A stretch of 64,000 nt of DNA from a phage. How positions within the stretch are numbered: position 1 is the stretch's first letter; every line of letters begins with the position of its first letter. This document shows, in pieces, positions 6,441 to 32,484 of this stretch. The notes beneath the pieces were generated by a model, which did not search any database, had not been told where the DNA came from, and worked only from the letters and a program-made list of their open reading frames with translations. The position numbers were made by a program, and so were the translations under genes. The DNA lies in NCBI GenBank assembly GCA_033580375.1, contig GCA_033580375.1_4527.1; one strand, written 5' to 3'.

Positions 6441-6689
6441 TTATTCTTTTTCGCGAATAATAATTACTTGTTGAGGCTGCTGAGCAGATTTCTTTTCGGC
6501 AACGATAGACCAAATTAAAGTTCCAATCCAACCAACCATCGTCCAGTTAAAGAGCAAAGATACAAAGAAGATTGCTGTTGTGCTTTTTGTGCCACGAATA
6601 AGTGCGATTACCCAAGGCAACATGTAAATGATGATTGAACCAATACCTGCGATTAAAACTGCTACTGAACTAGCTACGAATAATTCCAT
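6441..6689 (-). CDS. small inner-membrane protein
   Basis: 82 aa, two long hydrophobic segments. Confidence 0.5.
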   Translation of the reverse strand: MELFVASSVAVLIAGIGSIIIYMLPWVIALIRGTKSTTAIFFVSLLFNWTMVGWIGTLIWSIVAEKKSAQQPQQVIIIREKE

Positions 6690-6750: not shown

Positions 6751-7119
6751 TTAATTAAATTTGTTTAAACGTTCAATACACTGGACGTAGTTATTCGCGA
6801 TTTGTTTCTGGGTAGGCTCTTTACCAGTTGTTTCAACATAGCGAATGAATGCGATTTCAGTAGCCTGTAGACAATGTTCTTTAACGCGTTGTTCTTTTGT
6901 CAATGCTACAGTATCAGAGTCACGATAACGTTGAGCATGGGCATCGGCTTGAATCATTCGATTACCTACAGTAACCGGGTCTTCCACTTCAACTTTAGGT
7001 TGGTTGTACTGTTTAACATTCGGGTTATAAATCAATTGGCCAACATTATTAGGGATAAAGCCATGAGCACCACATCCAGTTAATCCGAATACCATTGCTA
7101 AAGCTATTAATTTTTTCAT
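6751..7119 (-). CDS. predicted lipoprotein
   Basis: 122 aa; signal peptide with lipobox LTGC. Confidence 0.5.
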   Translation of the reverse strand: MKKLIALAMVFGLTGCGAHGFIPNNVGQLIYNPNVKQYNQPKVEVEDPVTVGNRMIQADAHAQRYRDSDTVALTKEQRVKEHCLQATEIAFIRYVETTGKEPTQKQIANNYVQCIERLNKFN

Positions 7120-9663: not shown

Positions 9664-10026
9664 TTAAAAGAATTTAAATTTTTTCTTGGTTCGTTCATTA
9701 AAAGCTTGTTGTACCTGCATTGTAACACATTTTTCAACATGCGGCGCAAGTTCTGCTTTTCTGTCCTGGTCAAGAACTGCAAAGTCCATTACGATTTTAC
9801 CATCAACCCAGTCTAGTTTTGTAATATAGACTATATGATGAGAACCGTCTTCAAGTGTAATCAGAATCTCTTGAATGACGTTTTCCATTGCTGAACGGAT
9901 AATTTTAAGAGATTCATTAAACACTCGTTCTTTGCGAATGTCTTCCCCTTCCGAAGAAGGGGATTCATCAACGATTTCTAGATTTAAATCATCGAGATTA
10001 TTCATCGAAATCTTCCATTTCGTCAA
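9664..10026 (-). CDS. 40: gp40-like protein (head vertex assembly chaperone)
   Basis: 120-aa ORF in the conserved 41-40-uvsX position; call by synteny only. Confidence 0.45.
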   Translation of the reverse strand: MTKWKISMNNLDDLNLEIVDESPSSEGEDIRKERVFNESLKIIRSAMENVIQEILITLEDGSHHIVYITKLDWVDGKIVMDFAVLDQDRKAELAPHVEKCVTMQVQQAFNERTKKKFKFF

Positions 10027-11170
10027 GGTCGTTTTCTATATCTGCTGCAGATGGAGCATCAGAAGTTTTAACCGGAACTTTAGTTGTTGCTTTGCAATTA
10101 ATAAGGTCGTTAACTGCGTCATCAACTTCTTTAATAGAAGAGATAGCGCCTAGTTTATATTTAGTTTCAATTGCATCTCGGAAAGGTTTGTGTTTAAACA
10201 ACGGTCCCCAGAATTCTACGCAATCAGTAGCTTTAGCACGCCATGATTTCTCTTCACGAATCATTTCACCTGTTTCTTCGTCAAGGAATTCACGAGCATA
10301 CCAACCGGCTTTAGGTTTAACCACAAAACCAATTTCAGTTGCCATTTCTAACAAGCCACTGAATGGGTCAATACCGCCATCAAAATTAACCGTGATCGGG
10401 AAAGTAGATTTCTCTTTAACAGTACGAGATTTTTCTGCTTTCAACGTGAAGTCATAACCGGTCAATTCTGTACCTTCTTTAACCTGACGTTTAGAGATAA
10501 AGAATACAGTGTTAGCAGAGTAAAGAATACCTGTACCACCACCCATAATCTCTTTAGGATATAGTCCACCGATTTCCATTGCTGTATGGTTAATTGCAAC
10601 ACATGGAATATCTTTAATAGTCAGATACGGGGTCACAATACGGAACAGAGATTTAAGTGCCTTAGCACGAGACATATCACCTACGACTTTCTCGTTCAAT
10701 GCATCTTCGGTTTCTTTCTTAGATGCAGTATTACCGATTGAATCGATAAAGATAATAACTTTATCACCGCGTTCAATAGCGTCAAGCTGATTAGTCATAT
10801 CAACTTTAAGTTGTTCGACGGACTGAATTGGTGTGTGAACTACACGGTCTAAATCAACACCCATTGAACGAAAATAAGATTCTGAAGCACCGAATTCTGA
10901 ATCATAGAACAAACAAATTGCATCTTTATATTTCTTCATATACGCTGCAACCATGGTCAGCCCAAACAATGTTTTAAAATGTTTAGAAGGTGCAGCAAAA
11001 ATAGTCAAGCCTGATTGCAATCCTGCATTCAGAGCACCACCTAGTGCAATATTCAACATCGGAATACGAGTAGGGACTTCATCGCGATTATTAAACAGCT
11101 TAGACTTAGTCAAGTCTGCAGTCATTTTAGAAGTAGAAGCTTTAATCAGACGAGATTTTAAATCAGACAT
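9998..11170 (-). CDS. uvsX: recombinase UvsX (RecA-like)
   Basis: MSDLKSRLIKASTSK...RIPMLNIALGG...NHT...WYAREFLDEETGEMIREEKSWRAK nearly co-linear with T4 UvsX. Confidence 0.9.
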   Translation of the reverse strand: MSDLKSRLIKASTSKMTADLTKSKLFNNRDEVPTRIPMLNIALGGALNAGLQSGLTIFAAPSKHFKTLFGLTMVAAYMKKYKDAICLFYDSEFGASESYFRSMGVDLDRVVHTPIQSVEQLKVDMTNQLDAIERGDKVIIFIDSIGNTASKKETEDALNEKVVGDMSRAKALKSLFRIVTPYLTIKDIPCVAINHTAMEIGGLYPKEIMGGGTGILYSANTVFFISKRQVKEGTELTGYDFTLKAEKSRTVKEKSTFPITVNFDGGIDPFSGLLEMATEIGFVVKPKAGWYAREFLDEETGEMIREEKSWRAKATDCVEFWGPLFKHKPFRDAIETKYKLGAISSIKEVDDAVNDLINCKATTKVPVKTSDAPSAADIENDLDEMEDFDE

Positions 11171-11269
11171 TGTATTTTTCCATAGGCATCATTATATTTT
11201 ACTCATGTTTAAAAGATAAGATGATTATATACTAATGATTATACAGCATTTAAAACTTTAAACAGGCTC

Positions 11270-11818
11270 TTAACGAGCCCATTTGATGATTTCTGTAATC
11301 AAATCATTACGTTCGCTTGCATTAAATCCTATAACTTTGTTAGCACCATCATGATTAAGTAATTGATACGTTTGGATTTTGTTATGAATTGCAAACTCTT
11401 CAAAATGTGAAATGACTGTATTAAAACTGAGTGAAGACAAAGTAATAAGATCGTCTTCAAAACTTTCAGTCATTTCGTTACGTGTTAAAATAATTGTGAA
11501 CACGTCATGGTTTTGGCAAAGACGAACATAATCCTGCTCATAAACATCAAGAACCGAGTCCGCATCTTGTCGAATACGTCCATAAACCCAGTTACTAATA
11601 TATCCACGGTCTAACAGATAAATCTTAGTAGGGTCTAAATAATTCAACATCGTTTCGAAACAACCAACTTCATTTCGAGACTTAACATCGAAACGTCCAT
11701 CAACTGTTCGTTTAGGGAAATCAATCTTTACATATCTTTCACTAATTTCCATTATGACATTAATGAAAGTTGTTTTGCCGGCATTATCTGGGCCATCTAC
11801 TAAAATAATTTTAGCCAT
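11270..11818 (-). CDS. thymidylate-kinase-like P-loop nucleotide kinase
   Basis: 182 aa; ILVDGPDNAGKTT Walker A and DRGYISNWVYG resembling the Tmk DR motif. Confidence 0.5.
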   Translation of the reverse strand: MAKIILVDGPDNAGKTTFINVIMEISERYVKIDFPKRTVDGRFDVKSRNEVGCFETMLNYLDPTKIYLLDRGYISNWVYGRIRQDADSVLDVYEQDYVRLCQNHDVFTIILTRNEMTESFEDDLITLSSLSFNTVISHFEEFAIHNKIQTYQLLNHDGANKVIGFNASERNDLITEIIKWAR

Positions 11819-11819
11819 T

Positions 11820-12716
11820 TTATTCCTCGATTACGACATCTTCGTATTTAGGTATATTATACGGCGAAGAAATTAAAGCATTAAAGTAGATGAACTCACC
11901 AAGACCTGGATGGAATACTTCTTCAGGATTTTCGAAATATTGAATCTTCGGACGTCCTTTAAGAATTTGATAGTACTCAGTTTTAGTTGGTTTAAAAATT
12001 CGAATCAGCGCTTCTTCAGGATACTTATTTCTGTCGAAGCTATTATTTGGATCGGTTATATAAAGTGGTTGTCCTAATTGAATTGCACATTCAACCACTT
12101 GTTCAAAATGATAACACGGATCACTAATTCGAAATGGATGAAAAATACCATCTACATGAATAGGAGCCAAATCACCTACAAGACGCTGCATGATGGAAGG
12201 ACGTATAACTTTCTGCGTTACGATAATCTTATTATCTGCGCCAGCGTTAACCAGCACTTCTTTTTGACGTTCATTCAACACAGTAGTTTGAAGTGAACGA
12301 TTAACCGACAACATGTCGGTTTTTAAGAATTCGTCAATATAAAAACGTGGTTTATTAGGGTCTGCAGTGATATTGAAATTGAATTCTACATCAAAAGCGC
12401 CGTCATATCCAGTGATATCTGTGATTAGAAAATCACAATCATAATAAGCAATTAATGAATCAACAACAAATTCATTTTCAGACCAGAAATATTTACGAGT
12501 GTTATACGCGTTATCTTTATACCATAATGGAACAAACTTAAATTCTGGGAAAAGACGTTCACATTCTTTAATATCAGATGCATTACGTGGATATGTAATC
12601 ACATCACCCGGATTAGCACGGTGCAAATGAAGTTGGAAGTTGCCATCCTTAAGGATAGCATACTGTCCAGTTTCATAAGACCGCATACTCAAGATTGGTA
12701 CGCGGAAAATAGCCAT
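11820..12716 (-). CDS. hypothetical protein at the T4 beta-gt position; candidate DNA-modifying transferase
   Basis: 298-aa ORF; no similarity to T4 beta-gt recognisable by eye. Confidence 0.45.
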   Translation of the reverse strand: MAIFRVPILSMRSYETGQYAILKDGNFQLHLHRANPGDVITYPRNASDIKECERLFPEFKFVPLWYKDNAYNTRKYFWSENEFVVDSLIAYYDCDFLITDITGYDGAFDVEFNFNITADPNKPRFYIDEFLKTDMLSVNRSLQTTVLNERQKEVLVNAGADNKIIVTQKVIRPSIMQRLVGDLAPIHVDGIFHPFRISDPCYHFEQVVECAIQLGQPLYITDPNNSFDRNKYPEEALIRIFKPTKTEYYQILKGRPKIQYFENPEEVFHPGLGEFIYFNALISSPYNIPKYEDVVIEE

Positions 12717-13432
12717 TAGTCAAGGAATCCTTTAACATAATCAAAATCACGTTCAAACACATGGGCACTTACCATGGTATGAGTATAATCACCAACTTCT
12801 ACACCGCATTCGTTAGCGATATAATGAAGTAATTTTCCTTGGAGATAAAAATCCAACTGCATAACAACAGCACAGTTCTGAGAACGCATATGACAGTGGG
12901 TATAAAGCTTACCATCACGAATATAATAAGTCACTGAGTCAGTACATGGATATTCAAGTGTTTCATCTGAATCAAGCAAAGCCTGATCAGAACTTTCTAG
13001 AATTTGGAACACAACTCTTCGAGAGTTAGGTTTTTCTTTAAGTTCTTTTAGAAGAGCTGGTAATTGAGCCGCAATGCGAGGACCATAGAAAGTGTTGAAG
13101 TTTGCAGGCAAAGCATCTGATTTTGGTTTAGAAATAAATTTAGCGACATTAGGATATGCCTTAAACGCTTCTTCTGCATCAGTACCACCGGAAATCATAA
13201 ACTTCCAGAAGTCTTCGGCATATTCATAAGATATGCGATTAATACGTGGGTCGGTCATTTTGAATGATGATGGAGTGTCAACAACTACTGTCATAGACCC
13301 AATTTCATTACAACGTCCAATACGAGAATCAGTTACGAATTCTGGGTTTTCTAAAATTTCACGATTGACTGCTTTAAATGCGGTTTGAAAATCTGCGGCT
13401 TTGATATATTTCATTGTGTTATGTTTTCCCAT
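12716..13432 (-). CDS. 42: dCMP hydroxymethylase gp42 (thymidylate-synthase fold)
   Basis: 238 aa; YPCTDSVTYYIRDGKL (catalytic Cys) and HMRSQNCAVVMQLDF resemble T4 gp42/ThyA motifs; syntenic position. Confidence 0.8.
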   Translation of the reverse strand: MGKHNTMKYIKAADFQTAFKAVNREILENPEFVTDSRIGRCNEIGSMTVVVDTPSSFKMTDPRINRISYEYAEDFWKFMISGGTDAEEAFKAYPNVAKFISKPKSDALPANFNTFYGPRIAAQLPALLKELKEKPNSRRVVFQILESSDQALLDSDETLEYPCTDSVTYYIRDGKLYTHCHMRSQNCAVVMQLDFYLQGKLLHYIANECGVEVGDYTHTMVSAHVFERDFDYVKGFLD

Positions 13433-13710
13433 GTTTACCTCAATACAATTTATTATATACTCAATTCGTAAAGCTTATTTGAATTTCTTGGCAATGTTGA
13501 TATAACGTAAAGCTTCAGCATCGATACTTCCAAGAACACTATGAAGAAATGCATCAGCTTAGTATTCTAATTGAACAGGTTCTTTAATCACTTTAGCCGC
13601 TTTGGTTTCAAACAGGCCCATAAGGGCCTTTTTAAGAATTTGTTCGTTAGTGTTCAGTTTCATAGTCAAAATCTCTTCATTAAGTTTATAATTAAAAGCT
13701 TTTCTAGAAA

Positions 13711-14871
13711 TCATTCCGGGTACCTCAAAGCGTCATCAGAGTTAGTTATATCAATAATAGATATGGAGTTTTCTGCTAACCCGTTTTTAGATAATTGACG
13801 TTTGTAATATCTTTCACAATATGTACACGTTGACCCACAGATTTCATTAGCACAATCGAAATCCGGATGTCTGAACCACCTTTTTTCTAAAAAGCCATCT
13901 AACAAAGAGGTTTCAATATTTACTGTATGTGAAAACTCAGTCTCATTTTCAAGAGTGAAAATAGTCTCTAAAGGCTTCCACAGTTCTAACAAATTACCTT
14001 CAAACTTTTCAGAAGCGTATGCTTCAAGAACTTTCAAAATGTAGTCTGTGCTACCTGTACGTCCTGAAACTTTGAATTGAGTGATACCAATATCATTATA
14101 AAGTTTCAAATCTTGAGGACGAACAAAACGAGTTCTCAGCCAGTTAAATGGGTCTGTATCACGAGCTTTAATGCAGTGTTGCATTGGATATCCATTTAAG
14201 GATTTAGCATCATCAGCGGTAACATCAGTACTATGGAAAATATAGCAAGAGTCACGATAACTACAATGTGTTGTATACCCTTTACCAGCATTAGAACAGA
14301 ACTCATTTACAAGAACTTCAAATATTATATTGTTCTTATTGCAAAACTCTGCTGCACGCTTCAGGAAAGAAACTGAACGGTTCTTATGAATTCCACAGCA
14401 GACCTTTTTGATATTATATTGGTCATGCAAGTATTTGATTTGAGTTACGGCATCAACATGTAGAATTGTTGAAACTTCAATCTCAATATCTTTATTGACT
14501 TCACGAACAATTTCCATAACAACAGGGTTAGCGATAGTAATACGCCATACACCTATTGACCAAAGATACTGAACATAATCCTGAATAGCTTTCTTCTTCC
14601 ACTCAACTAGTTCTCTTTTTGAACCAGGATTTATCGTGTTGAGTGTATAGTTAAAGCAAATACCTAATTCGTTACAACGTTTAACATAGTCTTCTAACAT
14701 TTTTTTGTCAACGTCAGGAAGCCTAAAATCAGGTCTGGCTGCTACAAAAGCCATTTCTCTTGTAGAGCCATATACTTCGTTTATCAAGCTATTAGGATAA
14801 GTTTTATTGAGCTCTACGATTTTATCAAGAAGAGCTAAATCAAAATTCGTTCCGATTTTAAAAGTATTCAT
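13711..14871 (-). CDS. hypothetical Cys-rich protein, function unknown
   Basis: 386 aa; C-terminal CANEICGSTCTYC cluster plus further conserved-looking Cys; lies between gene 42 and the sugar-nucleotide genes. Confidence 0.5.
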   Translation of the reverse strand: MNTFKIGTNFDLALLDKIVELNKTYPNSLINEVYGSTREMAFVAARPDFRLPDVDKKMLEDYVKRCNELGICFNYTLNTINPGSKRELVEWKKKAIQDYVQYLWSIGVWRITIANPVVMEIVREVNKDIEIEVSTILHVDAVTQIKYLHDQYNIKKVCCGIHKNRSVSFLKRAAEFCNKNNIIFEVLVNEFCSNAGKGYTTHCSYRDSCYIFHSTDVTADDAKSLNGYPMQHCIKARDTDPFNWLRTRFVRPQDLKLYNDIGITQFKVSGRTGSTDYILKVLEAYASEKFEGNLLELWKPLETIFTLENETEFSHTVNIETSLLDGFLEKRWFRHPDFDCANEICGSTCTYCERYYKRQLSKNGLAENSISIIDITNSDDALRYPE

Positions 14872-14929
14872 TTTTTTGCATCTCGCGTTAATTGATGCGA
14901 TGGGTTTTTTGCAGGTCTTACTTAAATTA

Positions 14930-15331
14930 TTATAGATTCGGTTTATACGATTTAAATGTTTCGAATTCGCCTTTATTCATAAGAGCTTTGAATTCGTCAG
15001 GACGCATAGCTTTGTCGTCGATAATCCAATCATATACTGGTTTATGTGTTAGCAAATTATGGTACTTCAAACCAATGTTTTCCAAGTTCTGAATCAGACT
15101 TGGGAGAATGTCAATTGCTATACGACCAGGACCTACTGACTTCATACCACGAGCAGTGTAAAGCGTTATGGTATGCCCTGCATCATACAGGGCATTAATG
15201 GCGGTCACCATTTCGACGTCTGGTTTGAAGTTCGCGTAATCACGATTGTTATTCCATTCCGTGATGCAATCATCGACATCAAAACAAAGATTAAGCATGT
15301 TTTCTACACGGCGCATTAGATTCGTTCCCAT
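14930..15331 (-). CDS. small HAD-superfamily sugar-phosphate phosphatase (KdsC/GmhB-like)
   Basis: 133 aa; FDVDDCI DxD nucleophile motif near N-terminus, TARG motif II. Confidence 0.55.
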   Translation of the reverse strand: MGTNLMRRVENMLNLCFDVDDCITEWNNNRDYANFKPDVEMVTAINALYDAGHTITLYTARGMKSVGPGRIAIDILPSLIQNLENIGLKYHNLLTHKPVYDWIIDDKAMRPDEFKALMNKGEFETFKSYKPNL

Positions 15332-17001
15332 TGATGAGTGATATCGCCACCGATTGGACGATAGGAAACACCAGTTTCTTTATCAGTTAGTACCCATTTA
15401 CCAGGATTTTTTGTAATCAGAGTAGCCGTTACAGGTTCTGCTACGTCATAACTAATAGAGCCGTCTTGAAGTACACGACCCATGTTACGTAATTGCTTAG
15501 TCAGAAGTTCCATACCTTTATAATATGCGGCTACCGCTTTAAGTGGATTATTCTTGAAATAACCACCTAATGCAATCCAGATAATCGCCACTGCCAAATG
15601 ATGATACTCGTTAAACGAACTCATCTTTCCATATTTGTAAACTAATGGATTGATGTTAATAGTCACATTACAAGTTGTTTCGTCAATAGTAAACTGTCCC
15701 CAGGTCGGATTAGCATTGAATTCATCATAACCTGAAACAGCATAAAGCACTTTAGCTTCATCGTACAATTTTGGCCCGTAAATCTTGGTTTCACCAAAAT
15801 ATCCACGAGGGTCGATAAACTTGACTTCGCCGTTATCAGTAATCATAGTATTACTGAAGTTCGGGTCACCGTGAATAACAGAGTACTGTCCCTGAGAACG
15901 GTTATGATAACGAATAAGGTGTTCTAAAGCTTGTTTCAACATTGGCTTCAGACGTCCAATCTTAGTGTAGTTCACATGTGTGATTTTACCAAATGAATCA
16001 ATCAATGGTTGAATGCTTTCACAACGATCAATAACTTTCGTATAGAATTCTTTAGTGAAATCACGACGAACAGTTTCAGGACTTACAAAATAAATGTCTG
16101 TGCTGAATTTCAGTGCATCTAAAATTGCATCAACAATTTGTGGACGAGCAAGACTTGATTTGGATTTAATATATTCAAATGCTGGCTTACCTTTAATGCG
16201 TTCCATTTCAAAGTTATTTTCATTAACAGAAACTAACTGAGGAACTGAATCTGATTTTACTTTCAAATACCATGAAATCTCATCTTTTTGAAGAGCTCGT
16301 CCCTGTTCTGTTAATGCGAATTTAGTTACAGTTTCTTCACCAATTTCAACTGCATTAAAACTACGATTAAGTTCACGAACTTCATGAGCCTTTTCAAGTT
16401 TAGGCATATCACCTAAATCAATTAGATTCATAAGCTCTGATTTATTGAATGCACTGCCGTAAAGGAATTCTACAAAATCACGTCCTTTACAGTATTCGTG
16501 AATTTCCTCGTCAGTAGAACCCATGTAGAATTCCCAGTCTTTGAACTGATAAATTCCTACAACATTACCGCCTGTTGAACCTACGTTAGTGATATTTTCA
16601 CCATCGAAATTATATCGACATTCATCACCCTTAACATAGATTGCGTTAACATTCCAAGACCATGAACCAAAATCTGGAATAATATCACACCAGTTAACAA
16701 CTACGTTATGGCCGTCTAAATCTTTATGTAATTTAGCAAGAGCATAAGCAGAACCATACGCTTCATCAACTGTACGAATAGTCACATTGAACCCTTCTTG
16801 CTCACAATAAGCTCGAACAGTTTCAGCAAATTTTGAATGAACTACTACAATAATTTCATCTGCACCAAGGTCAGAATAAATTGTATACAAATTGCTCAGA
16901 ATAGTGTCTTGTTTATAGTTCACAAGAACTTTTGGAATATGGTGAGTAATTGGATATAAACGAGTTGCCAGTCCAGCACCAAGAATAACAGCTTTTTTCA
17001 T
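15316..17001 (-). CDS. bifunctional sugar-1-phosphate nucleotidyltransferase (N-term) / APH-type sugar kinase (C-term)
   Basis: 561 aa; N-term ILGAGLATRLYPIT (RmlA/GalU-like G-x-G-x-R), C-term HGDPNFSN Brenner motif and FIDPRG as in choline/aminoglycoside-kinase fold. Confidence 0.65.
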   Translation of the reverse strand: MKKAVILGAGLATRLYPITHHIPKVLVNYKQDTILSNLYTIYSDLGADEIIVVVHSKFAETVRAYCEQEGFNVTIRTVDEAYGSAYALAKLHKDLDGHNVVVNWCDIIPDFGSWSWNVNAIYVKGDECRYNFDGENITNVGSTGGNVVGIYQFKDWEFYMGSTDEEIHEYCKGRDFVEFLYGSAFNKSELMNLIDLGDMPKLEKAHEVRELNRSFNAVEIGEETVTKFALTEQGRALQKDEISWYLKVKSDSVPQLVSVNENNFEMERIKGKPAFEYIKSKSSLARPQIVDAILDALKFSTDIYFVSPETVRRDFTKEFYTKVIDRCESIQPLIDSFGKITHVNYTKIGRLKPMLKQALEHLIRYHNRSQGQYSVIHGDPNFSNTMITDNGEVKFIDPRGYFGETKIYGPKLYDEAKVLYAVSGYDEFNANPTWGQFTIDETTCNVTININPLVYKYGKMSSFNEYHHLAVAIIWIALGGYFKNNPLKAVAAYYKGMELLTKQLRNMGRVLQDGSISYDVAEPVTATLITKNPGKWVLTDKETGVSYRPIGGDITHQWERI

Positions 17002-17042
17002 GTTGAAGTCCTCATTGGTAAGTAGGAGTATTGTACACTATT

Positions 17043-17186
17043 CTAGTTAAAGCATTCATACTTTGCTTGTAGTCCAATCATAATCCATCCAATTACAAGT
17101 GTTGGAATCATTACTGGAGCCGTTAAGCTCCAGTAGATAGTCATGACAAGCATCAATAGTAAAAGTCCTATTGTTATTGCTTTCAT
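17043..17186 (-). CDS. small hydrophobic peptide at the T4 imm position
   Basis: 47 aa, below track threshold; ATG with GAGG SD, entirely hydrophobic. Confidence 0.3.
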   Translation of the reverse strand: MKAITIGLLLLMLVMTIYWSLTAPVMIPTLVIGWIMIGLQAKYECFN

Positions 17187-17818
17187 TGCTCGCCTCGTAA
17201 CATGGCACCTAGAGCACCGCCAGGGTGGAACTTAAGGAAATCATTAGAGGTAAATCCACGTTCAGACGAAAGGTTGATAGCAAACGTATCGATAAGCGCT
17301 AACAACAATGTAGTGGACATGGTCGGAGCTAAAGAGTTCTCGTCAACTTCTACCGCGATACCGGTACAGAACGTATAATCAAAAAGAGCTTCGTATTCTT
17401 GCGGAATGTCAGGGTTACAATGTAACAGAATCTGTTTAACCTGAGGACGAATCATACGAAGATGTTTAGCAACACCTATCATTTCTTCAGTCTTACCAGA
17501 ACGACTGATGTGAACTAATACATCATTAGGTGCAATAAATCCTGCGTCGCCATGAGAATAATGCCCAGTGTTCAAATACATGCTAGGAATACCGAGTGAA
17601 GCAAATGTCTCAGAAGCTTTAGTTGCAATATTAGCATTCTTACCAACACCTGTAATAATTACACGACTTTCATAATTACTCAGTCCAGGGCGTCGAAGAG
17701 TTTCAAGAATAGCATTATAACGAGCAGGGTTTTGACTAATTACTTTGGCCATAGCGGCCAAAGAAGAAGCTTGTTTTATGATTGCGTCAATAGCGATAGT
17801 AATAGGAGTAGTTTTCAT
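17183..17818 (-). CDS. SIS-domain sugar-phosphate isomerase (KdsD/GutQ-like arabinose-5-phosphate isomerase, single domain)
   Basis: 211 aa; ITGVGKNANIATKASETFASLG...HGDAGFIAPNDVLVHISRSGKTEE matches KdsD-type SIS motifs. Confidence 0.65.
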   Translation of the reverse strand: MKTTPITIAIDAIIKQASSLAAMAKVISQNPARYNAILETLRRPGLSNYESRVIITGVGKNANIATKASETFASLGIPSMYLNTGHYSHGDAGFIAPNDVLVHISRSGKTEEMIGVAKHLRMIRPQVKQILLHCNPDIPQEYEALFDYTFCTGIAVEVDENSLAPTMSTTLLLALIDTFAINLSSERGFTSNDFLKFHPGGALGAMLRGEQ

Positions 17819-17858
17819 ATTTCTCTCATTTAATTAGTTTACCGTCCTTGGCATTATA

Positions 17859-20570
17859 TCAAAAATCGAACATATCGAATAGAGATGCTTTCTTCTCGTA
17901 ATCGAGTTTCGCTGCTGATGTGAATCCTTCAAGTGGTTTAATAAATGTCTTCTCAAGGAGAACAGTGTAGTCCATCCAATGAAGTACATCATCTTTGATT
18001 AAATCAGTGATTTCAGTACCAGAAGGCCATGCGATACATTTATCACCGAACGGGTTTCCTTCACGTAAAGGCAGAACATATACTTTTTCACCTTCTACAA
18101 CTTGTGGTGCATCGATATTACCTTTGATAGCCCGGTTATACGTCAGAATTCCACGAATATGGAACGGACATTTAGGACCAGGGAATCCACCTACATCATA
18201 TTTAGCAATGTTATTCGCAGAAGATACCGACGCGATGCTAATATAATTCAATTGACGGAATTCTTTTTCAAACTCTTTAAAATATTCTTGTAATGATTCT
18301 TCACCTTCTTGAAGCATACGACGAATACATTCTTTAAGAGCTTTCTGTACCGCTTTAGGAGTTGAAGATTTCTGTGTTTCGAGACCCATGATTTTGAGTT
18401 TAGGCTCAGCGTAACGAGTACCTTCCATATCCCACACGTTTAATGCATAACGTTTCTTACCAGTCCAGAATCCGCCAATACCTTTAGAACCGAGCGGAGG
18501 ACCAGCGATAGCTTCTCGGTCCATGAACATTAAGTGTTGTTTATTGTTCATGTATTCACACATTTCACGGAAACCTCTATCAATAGCCGGTTCCATACGT
18601 TCACGAGCGAACTTATCTAAGAAGTCTACCCAATGGTTGGTATCACGGAATTTAGATTCACCAACCTTATCAATAATTTTATCTGCAGATACATAAATGG
18701 AGTCTGTATCACCATAAAGAACGAAAGCTTCACCTTCTGTACCACAAACTTCGTTCAGATATTCATTAACTTTACGTTCAATCCACTGTAAAGCCATTTG
18801 CCCGAATGTTGTGATTGCAGTAGCATTACGCAAATCGTAATAACGGAACCAAACGTTTCCAAGTGCACCATAAAGCGAGTTGATGAGTAATTTACGGTTA
18901 ATCTGTGCAGTCATACCTGCAACTTCAGTACGTTGAGCTCTAAACAACATTTCATTAAGAGATTTAGCAGACAACTTTTTAATCTTTTCTTTAATCTCGT
19001 CAGTGAAGTCGAAACGATAATCAACATCTAATGGTTCATCAACAGAAAGATTAGGATTATGCAATGCCTCTTTAATTATTTCACCATTACGTTGAGCTGC
19101 AAGCATGTAACCTTTATGTTCTTTACGCTGATTAAAGACCTTAGTGATTTCGGTTGGAACTACACCATCACGGTCTTTATAATACATCATGCCATTAGGA
19201 GAGCAACTGTACACATCTGAAGGACGTTCAGCAACAGCGTTAATATAATCATGCAATGGAGCTACTTTAAACGTTCCTGCTATTGTTTCTGGGCTAATAT
19301 TCACTTGGCGAATAATACTTGGATACAGAGATGTAAGGTCGAAACTCATTACATATTTGTATCGATTTGGAATAGGTTCCTTAACAAAAGCGCCAGGATA
19401 AGGTTGAACCGGGTGAGAACGACCTTGTGGAATCACCTTGTTCTGCTCTTTAAGGCTATTAAAAATAATAGCATCCCATGTTTTAATTGGGCTAAACACA
19501 GATTGAATCTGTATCTTAGCATAATAACCCATGTCCAAACTCAAGTTGATGAACTGACGCTTAGCATCAATTTGCAATACACGATACACGTCGATAATGT
19601 TATAAGAAATATATCGTTGGTGATTGCTTTCACGAAGCTTAGAAATAGGGCCTTCATATTTCAGTTTACCAACGTTCAATTCAAATTCTGAAATGTAATC
19701 CAGAGAATACGACGGTTGATTGGTAAAAGAGAATTTTTTGTAAAGGTCAATGTAATCAAGAACAGAGATACCGAACAATGTAATGATTTCACGAGAACCA
19801 TACATGTTTTCGATAACTTTAACACGAGTTTTACGATGTGGTGATAAACGTTTCGCAGTAGATTCGCCAAAAATATTCTTGATTCGGTTATACACATATG
19901 GAATATCAAATGACTCAACGTTCCATCCAGTCAAAATGACAGGAGTTTTCTGTTGCCAGAAGTTGAGATATTCCATCAACAATTCTTTTTCGTTATCGAA
20001 CGGCATATAAATGATTTTATCAATAATTTCGGATGGAACTTCATCACCACCTTGTTCTTGAAGCTTAGCCGCAATTTCGATAGACCATTCTTCCACATTA
20101 CCATATGGAGAATTCAATAGATCAAATACGTAGAACCTGTCGTCAATTGAGTCATAATGGGTGATAGCATCAATCGGATGTTTTGCTTGTGACGGCTCAG
20201 GGAACCCATCCGGAGATGTTACTTCGATGTCGAAGTTAGCCACACGAATTTTTGTATGGTCGTATTTGATTTCATAGTTATAAGTGTCAGACAAATACGC
20301 TAATTTGAAATCGTCCATGCCAAGTGCTTCAAGTCCGATATCTTCCATGCGTTTAATCCATTGGGAGGCATCACGCATATTAGCGAACAACTTACGAGTA
20401 CATGGCTTACCGTAGATATCGAAATATTTCGTAGCCTGACTTTCTGGACAATGAGCAAACAGTGATGGTTTATATTCTACTTCACGAGTACGTTCACGGC
20501 CGTTAGAATCGATGTAACGTTCAAAAATTGAATCACCGATCTGTTCAACCGTTAAGTAAAATTCTTTCAT
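17859..20570 (-). CDS. 43: DNA polymerase gp43 (family B)
   Basis: 903 aa; MKEFYLTVEQIGDSIFERYIDSNGRERTREVEYKPSLFAHCPESQATKYFDIYGKPCTRKLF... matches the RB69 gp43 sequence from structural studies; exo and pol motifs (LYGDTDS) present. Confidence 0.95.
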   Translation of the reverse strand: MKEFYLTVEQIGDSIFERYIDSNGRERTREVEYKPSLFAHCPESQATKYFDIYGKPCTRKLFANMRDASQWIKRMEDIGLEALGMDDFKLAYLSDTYNYEIKYDHTKIRVANFDIEVTSPDGFPEPSQAKHPIDAITHYDSIDDRFYVFDLLNSPYGNVEEWSIEIAAKLQEQGGDEVPSEIIDKIIYMPFDNEKELLMEYLNFWQQKTPVILTGWNVESFDIPYVYNRIKNIFGESTAKRLSPHRKTRVKVIENMYGSREIITLFGISVLDYIDLYKKFSFTNQPSYSLDYISEFELNVGKLKYEGPISKLRESNHQRYISYNIIDVYRVLQIDAKRQFINLSLDMGYYAKIQIQSVFSPIKTWDAIIFNSLKEQNKVIPQGRSHPVQPYPGAFVKEPIPNRYKYVMSFDLTSLYPSIIRQVNISPETIAGTFKVAPLHDYINAVAERPSDVYSCSPNGMMYYKDRDGVVPTEITKVFNQRKEHKGYMLAAQRNGEIIKEALHNPNLSVDEPLDVDYRFDFTDEIKEKIKKLSAKSLNEMLFRAQRTEVAGMTAQINRKLLINSLYGALGNVWFRYYDLRNATAITTFGQMALQWIERKVNEYLNEVCGTEGEAFVLYGDTDSIYVSADKIIDKVGESKFRDTNHWVDFLDKFARERMEPAIDRGFREMCEYMNNKQHLMFMDREAIAGPPLGSKGIGGFWTGKKRYALNVWDMEGTRYAEPKLKIMGLETQKSSTPKAVQKALKECIRRMLQEGEESLQEYFKEFEKEFRQLNYISIASVSSANNIAKYDVGGFPGPKCPFHIRGILTYNRAIKGNIDAPQVVEGEKVYVLPLREGNPFGDKCIAWPSGTEITDLIKDDVLHWMDYTVLLEKTFIKPLEGFTSAAKLDYEKKASLFDMFDF

Positions 20571-32013: not shown

Positions 32014-32484
32014 TTAATCATGTTTCCACACCCCATCGGTATTTGACCAAAGTCGCTGATTATCTGATCCTCGCCATAGCTTTTTGGTCGGAAGATTTTT
32101 CTCATACTTCCCATCAATAATAACATCAACATATTTAAGCATTTCTAGCTGTTTAATATCTTCAAACTTATATCCTGTCCACAACCAAATGCTTTTATTG
32201 GGATAAAGATTTTTAATAGTTTGAACCACAGAATGAATAACATCTCGGTTGTCAGGATAGAGAGGGTCTCCTCCAGATATAGTTAATCCTTCTATATAAT
32301 CATTATTCAAACATTCAATTAATTGTTCTAGTGTCTCTCCGGTGAATGGAGCACCATTTCTAGCGTTCCATGTTGATTTATTATAACACCCTTCACATTT
32401 ATGCAAACACCCTGTAACGAAAAGAACGACCCTACAACCAGGGCCATTAACAAAATCGCAAGGATAAAATCTATCATAATTCAT
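32014..32484 (-). CDS. nrdG: anaerobic ribonucleotide reductase activating protein NrdG
   Basis: 156 aa; Cys cluster near N-terminus (GCLHKCEGCYN) typical of NrdG; same length as T4 NrdG. Confidence 0.85.
   Translation of the reverse strand: MNYDRFYPCDFVNGPGCRVVLFVTGCLHKCEGCYNKSTWNARNGAPFTGETLEQLIECLNNDYIEGLTISGGDPLYPDNRDVIHSVVQTIKNLYPNKSIWLWTGYKFEDIKQLEMLKYVDVIIDGKYEKNLPTKKLWRGSDNQRLWSNTDGVWKHD

Follow-up and report, generated by a model that had tools for sequence, protein, structure and literature searches.

An RB69-type gene cluster for arabinosylated 5-hydroxycytosine between uvsX and gene 43 of a Mosigvirus, with a peptidase-U32 protein as candidate oxygen-independent hydroxylase

The region between the uvsX and gene 43 homologs of a phage contig (GCA_033580375.1_4527.1) was analysed for its role in DNA modification. 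The window, that is the whole stretch of DNA analysed, has a length of 64,000 nucleotides. The open reading frame (ORF) listing revealed seven co-directional genes on the minus strand at positions 11270-17818, tightly packed or overlapping, which encode proteins of 182, 298, 238, 386, 133, 561 and 211 aa. An initial annotation of the DNA had described these seven genes at exactly these coordinates and had omitted one small ORF at 13559-13714. The flanking uvsX homolog (9998-11170) showed 100% identity to RB69 and 68% to T4, while the gene 43 homolog (17859-20570) showed 99.8% and 61% identity, respectively. Across its full length the cluster DNA shared 97-98% identity with about 150 Mosigvirus genomes, and its GC content was the same as that of its flanks. 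The encoded proteins were 96-100% identical to RB69 gp45-gp55, with the genes and their order matching those of the RB69 uvsX-gene 43 interval; the phage is nonetheless distinct from RB69. The assignment of a sugar-modification cluster in place of the T4 glucosylation genes was thereby confirmed, the cluster being of the RB69 type. Such clusters are already known from the work of Lee et al. (NAR 2026, PMC13326640), and also from He et al. (Nat Chem Biol 2026) and Mahler et al. (Cell Host Microbe 2025). When positions 11000-18100 were scanned for promoters and terminators, the counts did not exceed the shuffled expectation.

The identity of the modified base was examined through the thymidylate synthase (TS) homolog at 12716..13432 (minus strand, 238 aa), which belongs to the TS superfamily. 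It was 100% identical to RB69 gp48 over 238 aa and 24.8% identical to T4 gp42, and its earlier naming as gene 42 was not upheld. Alignment by MAFFT to ThyA of E. coli and to T4 gp42 placed the catalytic cysteine at Cys163 (ThyA C146), Glu160 at the position of Leu143 (L143E) and Asp194 at N177, the position that determines specificity for deoxycytidine monophosphate (dCMP). Asn186 stands at ThyA Asp169 (D169N), and Ala97 replaces Trp80, a residue within 6 A of C5 of deoxyuridine monophosphate. Both Asp169 and Trp80 (ThyA numbering) are kept in E. coli ThyA as well as in T4 gp42, and neither is kept in the TS homolog. The D169N substitution has been published as diagnostic for the hydroxylases of the TS superfamily (Lee et al., PMC13326640). 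The protein also matched the HY126 structures 9iqc, 9ir2 and 9iqu in the PDB with an E value of 4.5e-162. Judged by these residues and by its identity to RB69 gp48, the TS homolog is a dCMP 5-hydroxylase (5-hydroxy-dCMP, or 5hodCMP, synthase), predicted to depend on flavin and O2, and not a dCMP hydroxymethylase.

The experimental results on the relatives are in accordance with this assignment. RB69 gp48 makes 5-hydroxy-dCMP in vivo with oxygen taken from 18O2 and with a loosely bound flavin, the flavin and the O2-derived oxygen having been shown for HY126 as well, and the TS-like enzyme alone suffices for the formation of 5-hydroxydeoxycytidine (5hodC) in E. coli grown aerobically (Lee et al., PMC13326640). 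The same study found mono- and di-arabinosylated cytidines in RB69 DNA by nuclear magnetic resonance (NMR) and mass spectrometry (MS), with D-arabinofuranose ether-linked directly to C5 through the oxygen of 5-hydroxycytosine. Since the TS homolog is identical to RB69 gp48 and carries D169N, the base is arabinosyl-5-hydroxycytosine and not the arabinosyl-5-hydroxymethylcytosine (arabinosyl-hmC) that the initial annotation had favoured. According to that older scheme, a gene 42 product would make hydroxymethyl-dCMP and the cluster would arabinosylate hmC, the transferase being either the 298-aa or the 386-aa protein. Arabinosyl-hmC was proposed in a 2018 paper on RB69, and the TS homolog does have in common with T4 gp42 the Asp that specifies dCMP and an acidic residue at position 143. 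The scheme is nevertheless refuted for RB69 and very improbable here, given the 18O2-derived oxygen in the product of an identical enzyme, the changes of Asp169 to Asn and of Trp80 to Ala, the direct ether link in RB69 DNA and the membership of the 386-aa protein in the peptidase-U32 family, which is no glycosyltransferase family. The Durham collection paper has called the RB69 arabinosyl-hmC assignment erroneous and found the direct linkage independently in Mosigvirus phage NP.

The sugar-nucleotide part of the pathway is represented by three genes. The first encodes a SIS-domain protein, a predicted arabinose-5-phosphate isomerase homologous to RB69 gp55 (17183..17818, minus strand, 211 aa), which was 97.6% identical to RB69p055 and scored 38.8 bits against a cutoff of 25 for the Pfam SIS family. 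It matched phrog_5670 (2.6e-116), KpsF/GutQ TIGR00393 (8.9e-32) and KdsD NF008141 (3.9e-30), in agreement with the KdsD-like isomerase named earlier. The second gene (15316..17001, minus strand, 561 aa) corresponds to RB69 gp52:53 and HY126 AfhE and encodes a bifunctional protein with 99% identity to RB69p053 plus p052. Its N-terminus is a sugar-1-phosphate nucleotidyltransferase domain (NTP_transferase PF00483 at residues 3-99, 39.1 bits against a cutoff of 21.2), for which several NCBIfam uridylyl- and thymidylyltransferase models also gave E values of 1e-5 to 1e-14. Its C-terminal region, of the APH/choline-kinase-like type, carries HGDPNFSN, a catalytic loop of kinases, at residue 377, with IDPRG at 396. 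The third gene encodes a small HAD phosphatase (14930..15331, minus strand, 133 aa), the counterpart of RB69 gp51 and HY126 AfhF, with 96% identity to RB69p051 over residues 6-133 and the DVDDC motif at residue 18. The phosphatase assignment of the initial annotation was supported by TIGR01689 (1.5e-13) and by the PDB entries 9iqw, an HY126 structure (4.2e-85), and 1xpj (9.6e-11). The true start of this gene is probably Met6, at position 15316.

The logic of these enzymes resembles that of ADP-heptose synthesis, in which the SIS isomerase GmhA, the bifunctional kinase/adenylyltransferase HldE and the HAD phosphatase GmhB act together. In both cases a SIS isomerase is followed by an anomeric kinase giving a bisphosphate, by removal of the distal phosphate by a HAD enzyme and by nucleotidyl transfer, and the kinase and nucleotidyltransferase are fused. 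The phage protein differs in that its kinase domain is of the APH/choline-kinase type and its transferase domain of the GlmU/RmlA type, whereas the domains of HldE are of other types. The phage enzymes work on a pentose, with uridine diphosphate (UDP) as the carrier. The nucleoside diphosphate-arabinose route, its ADP-heptose-like logic and the step order of the initial annotation agree with the HY126 biochemistry of He et al. as it is summarised by Lee et al.: AfhE converts arabinose-5-phosphate to the 1,5-bisphosphate and later synthesises UDP-arabinofuranose, and AfhF strips the 5-phosphate from arabinose-1,5-bisphosphate.

The names of such genes could also suggest that the cluster serves host-surface or capsule chemistry instead of DNA modification, as related records are named 'capsule biosynthesis', 'GlmU' and 'phosphoheptose isomerase' and TIGR01689 is itself a capsule biosynthesis phosphatase family. 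The genes are placed amid replication genes, and in each relative their linkage to the dCMP hydroxylase is tight; the D-arabinofuranose is found in the DNA of RB69, and the DLP3 transferases use UDP-arabinofuranose as donor in vitro (Lee et al., PMC13326640). The capsule role is excluded by the published chemistry of RB69, DLP3 and HY126, and of the readings considered here it is given the least weight.

The initial annotation had left the transferase open between the 298-aa and the 386-aa proteins. The 298-aa protein (11820..12716, minus strand; RB69 gp46:47) showed a GT-B fold with two Rossmann domains, and no family match was obtained for it in the Pfam and NCBIfam profile searches. It is likely to be the first, base-proximal arabinosyltransferase on the basis of its fold and of synteny with the single transferase of phage Thanatos, while the 386-aa protein was removed from consideration by its U32 family membership. 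The genes for the 298-aa and 561-aa proteins are intact here, unlike those of the RB69 reference, where each is split into two ORFs; Lee et al. attributed these splits to sequencing errors. The remaining enzyme at this end of the cluster is a thymidylate-kinase-like P-loop nucleotide kinase (11270..11818, minus strand, 182 aa), homologous to RB69 gp45 and 97.8% identical to RB69p045. The Tmk-like character noted earlier was borne out by phrog_761 thymidylate kinase (2e-44) and by the P-loop GPDNAGKT at residue 9; the score against TIGR00041 was 18 bits, far under the cutoff. RB69 gp45 was labelled 'nucleotide kinase' by Lee et al. from its structure alone.

The cluster occupies the genome position that holds segA, b-gt, 42, imm and imm.1 in T4. 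The T4 beta-gt gave no tblastn match at E values up to 1 in the whole 64-kb window, and the best match of T4 alpha-gt was at chance level (E 0.013 over 69 aa); the a-gt slot between the gene 47 and gene 55 homologs holds ORFs of at most 107 aa. The initial annotation had set the cluster in the place of beta-gt, 42 and imm of T4, but imm and imm.1 are not lost. Homologs of imm (6444-6689, 64% identity to T4) and imm.1 (6766-7113, 33%) are still present about 5 kb from the cluster, beyond uvsX and gene 41, and these superinfection immunity genes have been moved elsewhere and not replaced. The two systems are alike in that a TS-superfamily enzyme provides a hydroxyl-bearing dCMP to which a sugar is then transferred. 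They differ in the hydroxyl, which is placed directly on C5 with flavin and O2 in the cluster and comes as a hydroxymethyl group from methylene-tetrahydrofolate in T4, and in the enzyme itself (24.8% identity to gp42, Asp169 replaced by Asn). The sugar also differs, being arabinofuranose, for which the donor is necessarily made by the phage.

The above results indicate, with a probability of about 0.9, that the region is a Mosigvirus (RB69-type) cluster through which mono- and di-arabinosylated 5-hydroxycytosine takes the place of cytosine in the phage DNA. The TS homolog would convert dCMP to 5-hydroxy-dCMP with O2 and flavin, as shown in near-identical relatives, and the product would be raised to the diphosphate, for incorporation into DNA, by a gp1-type deoxynucleoside monophosphate kinase encoded outside the cluster; the corresponding RB69 gp159 phosphorylates 5-hydroxy-dCMP (Lee et al., PMC13326640). 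The SIS protein is predicted to form arabinose-5-phosphate from ribulose-5-phosphate. Following the steps shown in HY126, as far as these are summarised by Lee et al., the kinase domain of the 561-aa protein would then give the 1,5-bisphosphate, the HAD phosphatase arabinose-1-phosphate and the N-terminal domain of the 561-aa protein UDP-arabinofuranose. The first arabinose would be transferred onto the 5-hydroxyl by the 298-aa GT-B enzyme and the second by a predicted transferase encoded outside the window. The Tmk-like protein is predicted to act on some modified nucleotide, and the U32 protein may be a second hydroxylase, dependent on prephenate and independent of O2, which would supply 5-hydroxycytosine without O2.

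Several observations weigh against this scheme or its parts. The chemistry comes from the relatives RB69, HY126 and DLP3, and this phage is known from sequence alone. The SIS protein scored 110.7 and 105.2 bits, below the full-length curated cutoffs of 203.7 and 505; at 211 aa it is shorter than the KdsD model, and the match spans model positions 47-202 of 328. The kinase half of the fused protein, which the initial annotation had called APH-type, has the catalytic motif, and all the Pfam kinase families stayed below their gathering scores for it (14-18 bits). The first arabosyl transfer was not reconstituted by Lee et al., the individual DLP3 transferases being inactive on DNA with 5-hydroxycytosine, and the authors left undecided whether the acceptor of this transfer is a nucleotide or DNA (Lee et al., PMC13326640). 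For the Tmk-like kinase and the U32 protein, the roles given above are tentative.

The 386-aa protein (13711..14871, minus strand; RB69 gp50) is a cysteine-rich protein with 13 Cys and was analysed further. It is a member of the peptidase-U32 family (PF01136, 42.2 bits against a cutoff of 22.4) and not a plausible transferase. Its structural model had a mean predicted local distance difference test score of 92.9, and the best Foldseek match in the PDB was the U32 protein 5d88 (E 3.1e-7, TM-score 0.67 on the target). With BLASTP, no match to UbiU, UbiV, RlhA and TrhP of E. coli was obtained at E 0.01, and phmmer against the PDB sequences gave nothing at E 1. In hhalign, a shallow alignment built from 11 phage sequences that are nearly identical yielded weak matches only, and a 73-sequence alignment was required. 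The profile built from the latter matched RlhA with an E value of 1.4e-5 over 262 columns, TrhP with 0.003 and UbiU with 0.0075.

The cysteine pattern was compared over 121 homologs with identities down to 47%. Nine cysteines were invariant and a tenth, C177, was conserved in 97-98%. In the U32 domain, C192-X10-C203-X5-C209-X23-C233 were all four invariant, and the C-terminal residues C340, C345, C349 and C352 (C-X4-C-X3-C-X2-C) are among the conserved set. The stretch C209-YIFHS is aligned with C176-YISHA of RlhA. The spacing differs from C-X6-C-X15-C-X3/4-C, the motif by which the family binds a 4Fe-4S cluster, and the first Cys was placed differently by two alignments. Among the proteins of the cluster this one is the best conserved, with 82-89% identity across genera versus 64-80% for gp43.

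The characterised members of the U32 family are all tied to hydroxylation. RlhA is required for 5-hydroxycytidine at C2501 of 23S ribosomal RNA, TrhP for 5-hydroxyuridine in transfer RNA (tRNA), and UbiU/V for three hydroxylations of ubiquinone synthesis in which prephenate is the oxygen donor. All these hydroxylations are independent of O2 and dependent on prephenate. UbiU and UbiV hold one 4Fe-4S cluster each by four conserved Cys. In E. coli, such proteins take part in two-route systems: TrhP acts beside the O2-dependent TrhO for tRNA 5-hydroxyuridine, and UbiU/V beside the O2-dependent flavoenzymes UbiI/H/F for ubiquinone.

On the basis of this family knowledge and of the gene context, the phage U32 protein could be a prephenate-dependent, O2-independent C5 hydroxylase of dCMP or of cytosine in DNA, an anaerobic twin of the TS-like hydroxylase, and this role is given about an even chance. 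A U32 protein beside an O2-dependent enzyme would copy the two-route design of E. coli, and the closest E. coli paralog by profile, RlhA, hydroxylates C5 of cytidine. The phage protein differs from the E. coli proteins in forming a distinct subfamily of about 360-390 aa with its own Cys pattern, and its presumed substrate would be a deoxynucleotide or DNA. No statement of such a role was found in the searchable literature; it may be addressed by He et al. (2026) or by Mahler et al. (2025).

A possible, somewhat less favoured view is that the U32 protein is not a base hydroxylase but a sugar or heterocycle reductase, a protease as in the historical annotation, or a hydroxylase of host RNA, the chorismate mutase of relatives being used otherwise. 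Lee et al. labelled RB69 gp50 'sugar or heterocycle reductase' and mentioned RlhA and TrhP merely as unrelated pathways. The sufficiency of the TS-like enzyme for 5hodC in E. coli also speaks for this view, as does the fact that no U32 protein has so far been shown to hydroxylate in vitro. The link of the characterised members to O2-independent, prephenate-dependent hydroxylation, two of them acting on C5 of a pyrimidine, argues in the opposite direction.

The gene neighbourhood of U32 bears on the proposed anaerobic hydroxylase role, as the product of chorismate mutase is prephenate. In Serratia phage LC53 and Enterobacter phage Entb_45, an AroQ chorismate mutase was identified (CM_2 scores of 44.6 and 40.9 bits, the cutoff being 27). 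In these two and in most of the other Straboviridae loci examined, its gene lies ahead of the TS homolog and shares an overlap with the end of the U32 gene. The CM_2 scores beside U32 ranged from 40.9 to 86.1 bits in Winklervirus, Kanagawavirus and the other Straboviridae loci examined and in 5/29 other viral lineages; the Straboviridae loci without an adjacent chorismate mutase were the three Mosigvirus loci and L010 (Klebsiella phage Marfa). The adjacency of chorismate mutase, alone or fused to 3-deoxy-D-arabino-heptulosonate 7-phosphate (DAHP) synthase, in most Straboviridae loci and in 5/29 other lineages counts against the non-hydroxylase view. That view is helped by the absence of a chorismate mutase from the window, and none was found in RB69 either, so the U32 route would need prephenate from the host. 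Prephenate also feeds CmoA in another phage DNA modification, which is a further point for other uses of chorismate mutase, but no CmoA-like genes were seen in the clusters.

The position held by chorismate mutase in other genera is occupied here by the small ORF omitted earlier, a truncated homolog of RB69 gp49 (13559..13714, minus strand, 51 aa, phrog_8601), which overlaps the end of the 386-aa gene by 4 bases. Its stop is TAA at 13559-13561 where RB69 has TAC (Tyr), and the 27 downstream codons stay in frame. The full-length gene (79 aa) is present in four close relatives, ESh27, mar007P3, F31 and phiE142, and for this reason the stop that shortens the protein relative to RB69 is either private to this phage or a sequencing error. 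The candidate explanation of gp49, in RB69 and in the window, as a degenerate chorismate mutase was rejected, there being no match to Pfam, CM_2 included, or to NCBIfam models. The two are distinct genes, because several phages have both: four Straboviridae loci (L011, L017, L020 and L023) have a chorismate mutase and a gp49-like gene side by side in the interval from U32 to the TS homolog. The Mosigviruses have the gp49-like gene only, and Marfa has neither.

A deeper search revealed more than 100 U32 homologs with 47-58% identity on metagenomic phage-like contigs. Their loci were scanned with custom profiles over 10 kb on each side and collapsed to 29 unrelated viral lineages. The family of the 298-aa transferase (GT298) was found within this distance of U32 in 21/29 lineages, the fused kinase/nucleotidyltransferase in 12/29, the SIS isomerase in 9/29 and chorismate mutase in 5/29, while the TS-like 5hodCMP synthase was found in 0/29; as about 10 kb on each side of U32 was covered, a hydroxylase elsewhere in those genomes is possible. 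This co-clustering of U32 with GT298 in 21 lineages with no TS-like hydroxylase within 10 kb is a further argument against a role of U32 outside base hydroxylation. The one thymidylate synthase found near U32 (L051) was considered as a hidden 5hodCMP synthase and rejected, as it has the canonical residues W80, L143, D169 and N177.

The shikimate pathway begins with DAHP synthase. A fusion of DAHP synthase and chorismate mutase was found in four of the metagenomic loci (L060:8411-9433, L061:3-971, L063:7302-8357 and L064:8332-9387), and it looks like a phage module raising the prephenate supply. The fusion genes are located a few hundred bases upstream of U32, beside the SIS, kinase/nucleotidyltransferase and GT298 genes.

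The other metagenomic neighbours of U32 included dCMP deaminase, thymidylate kinases, dUTPase and uracil-DNA glycosylase-family genes, as well as a TET-associated glycosyltransferase and a UDP-galactopyranose mutase. An 86-kb contig (L028:8001-14360; also L029) carries two U32 paralogs and a radical SAM/SPASM protein, together with an NT5C 5'-deoxynucleotidase, a deoxynucleoside kinase, a nicotinamide mononucleotide transporter and a nucleoside deoxyribosyltransferase-like gene; no GT298-family gene was found there. A GH43 gene with a dockerin domain is located nearby and suggests an anaerobic cellulolytic host. On a 466-kb contig (L027:1448-9939) and a 60-kb contig (L030:1-9826), U32 follows a thymidylate kinase, a uracil-DNA-glycosylase-family gene, a DnaE-type polymerase and a dCMP deaminase, and is itself followed by the gene of a conserved protein, about 250 aa long, that matched no family. 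These two may represent a different hydroxypyrimidine pathway in very large phages.

The distribution over hosts was compared in the GenBank phage collection. The TS-like hydroxylase was found in 374 phage records, including 57 of Acinetobacter and 20 of Rhizobium phages. The U32 gene was found in 222, for which the listed hosts are all Enterobacterales or Shewanella, and it was not seen among the phages of Acinetobacter, Rhizobium, Agrobacterium or Pseudomonas; this distribution over hosts goes back to few independent events in evolution. Neither U32 nor chorismate mutase accompanies the pathway in Acinetobacter phage Maestro and Pseudomonas phage PspYZU05. The same holds for Escherichia phage QL01, a Dhakavirus (L024 3878-8589), which has the TS-like hydroxylase, the kinase/nucleotidyltransferase, the HAD phosphatase and the transferase, and which also retains imm beside gene 43. 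A strict rule that the phages of facultative anaerobes have U32 was rejected on account of QL01. The lack of U32 from the pathway in these phages of Acinetobacter, Pseudomonas and E. coli (Dhakavirus) is again a point for the view that U32 is not a base hydroxylase.

A homolog of T4 nrdG (79% identity), the activase of the anaerobic ribonucleotide reductase, was located in the window at 32017-32484. The phage is equipped for O2-free replication, which sharpens the puzzle of a base that depends on O2.

The arabosylated 5-hydroxycytosine shields phage DNA from restriction enzymes, from the Brig1 glycosylase and from type I CRISPR-Cas. This protection is already published and bears on candidates for phage therapy. 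As the cluster itself is already known, the new part of the present analysis is the U32 lead, which is specific and touches on the U32 family's unsolved biochemistry. The gut in which enteric phages replicate is largely anoxic, yet O2 is required by the sole route known for their essential modified base. If the U32 protein is an O2-independent hydroxylase, this conflict would be removed and the U32 family would gain a small soluble substrate. The chorismate mutase of many relatives, or its fusion with DAHP synthase, would then supply the oxygen donor. In the many uncultivated phages that have no TS-like enzyme nearby, U32 would be the only hydroxyl source for the GT298 transferase, and these phages would arrive at glycosylated hydroxypyrimidine DNA along a path that has no relation to thymidylate synthase.

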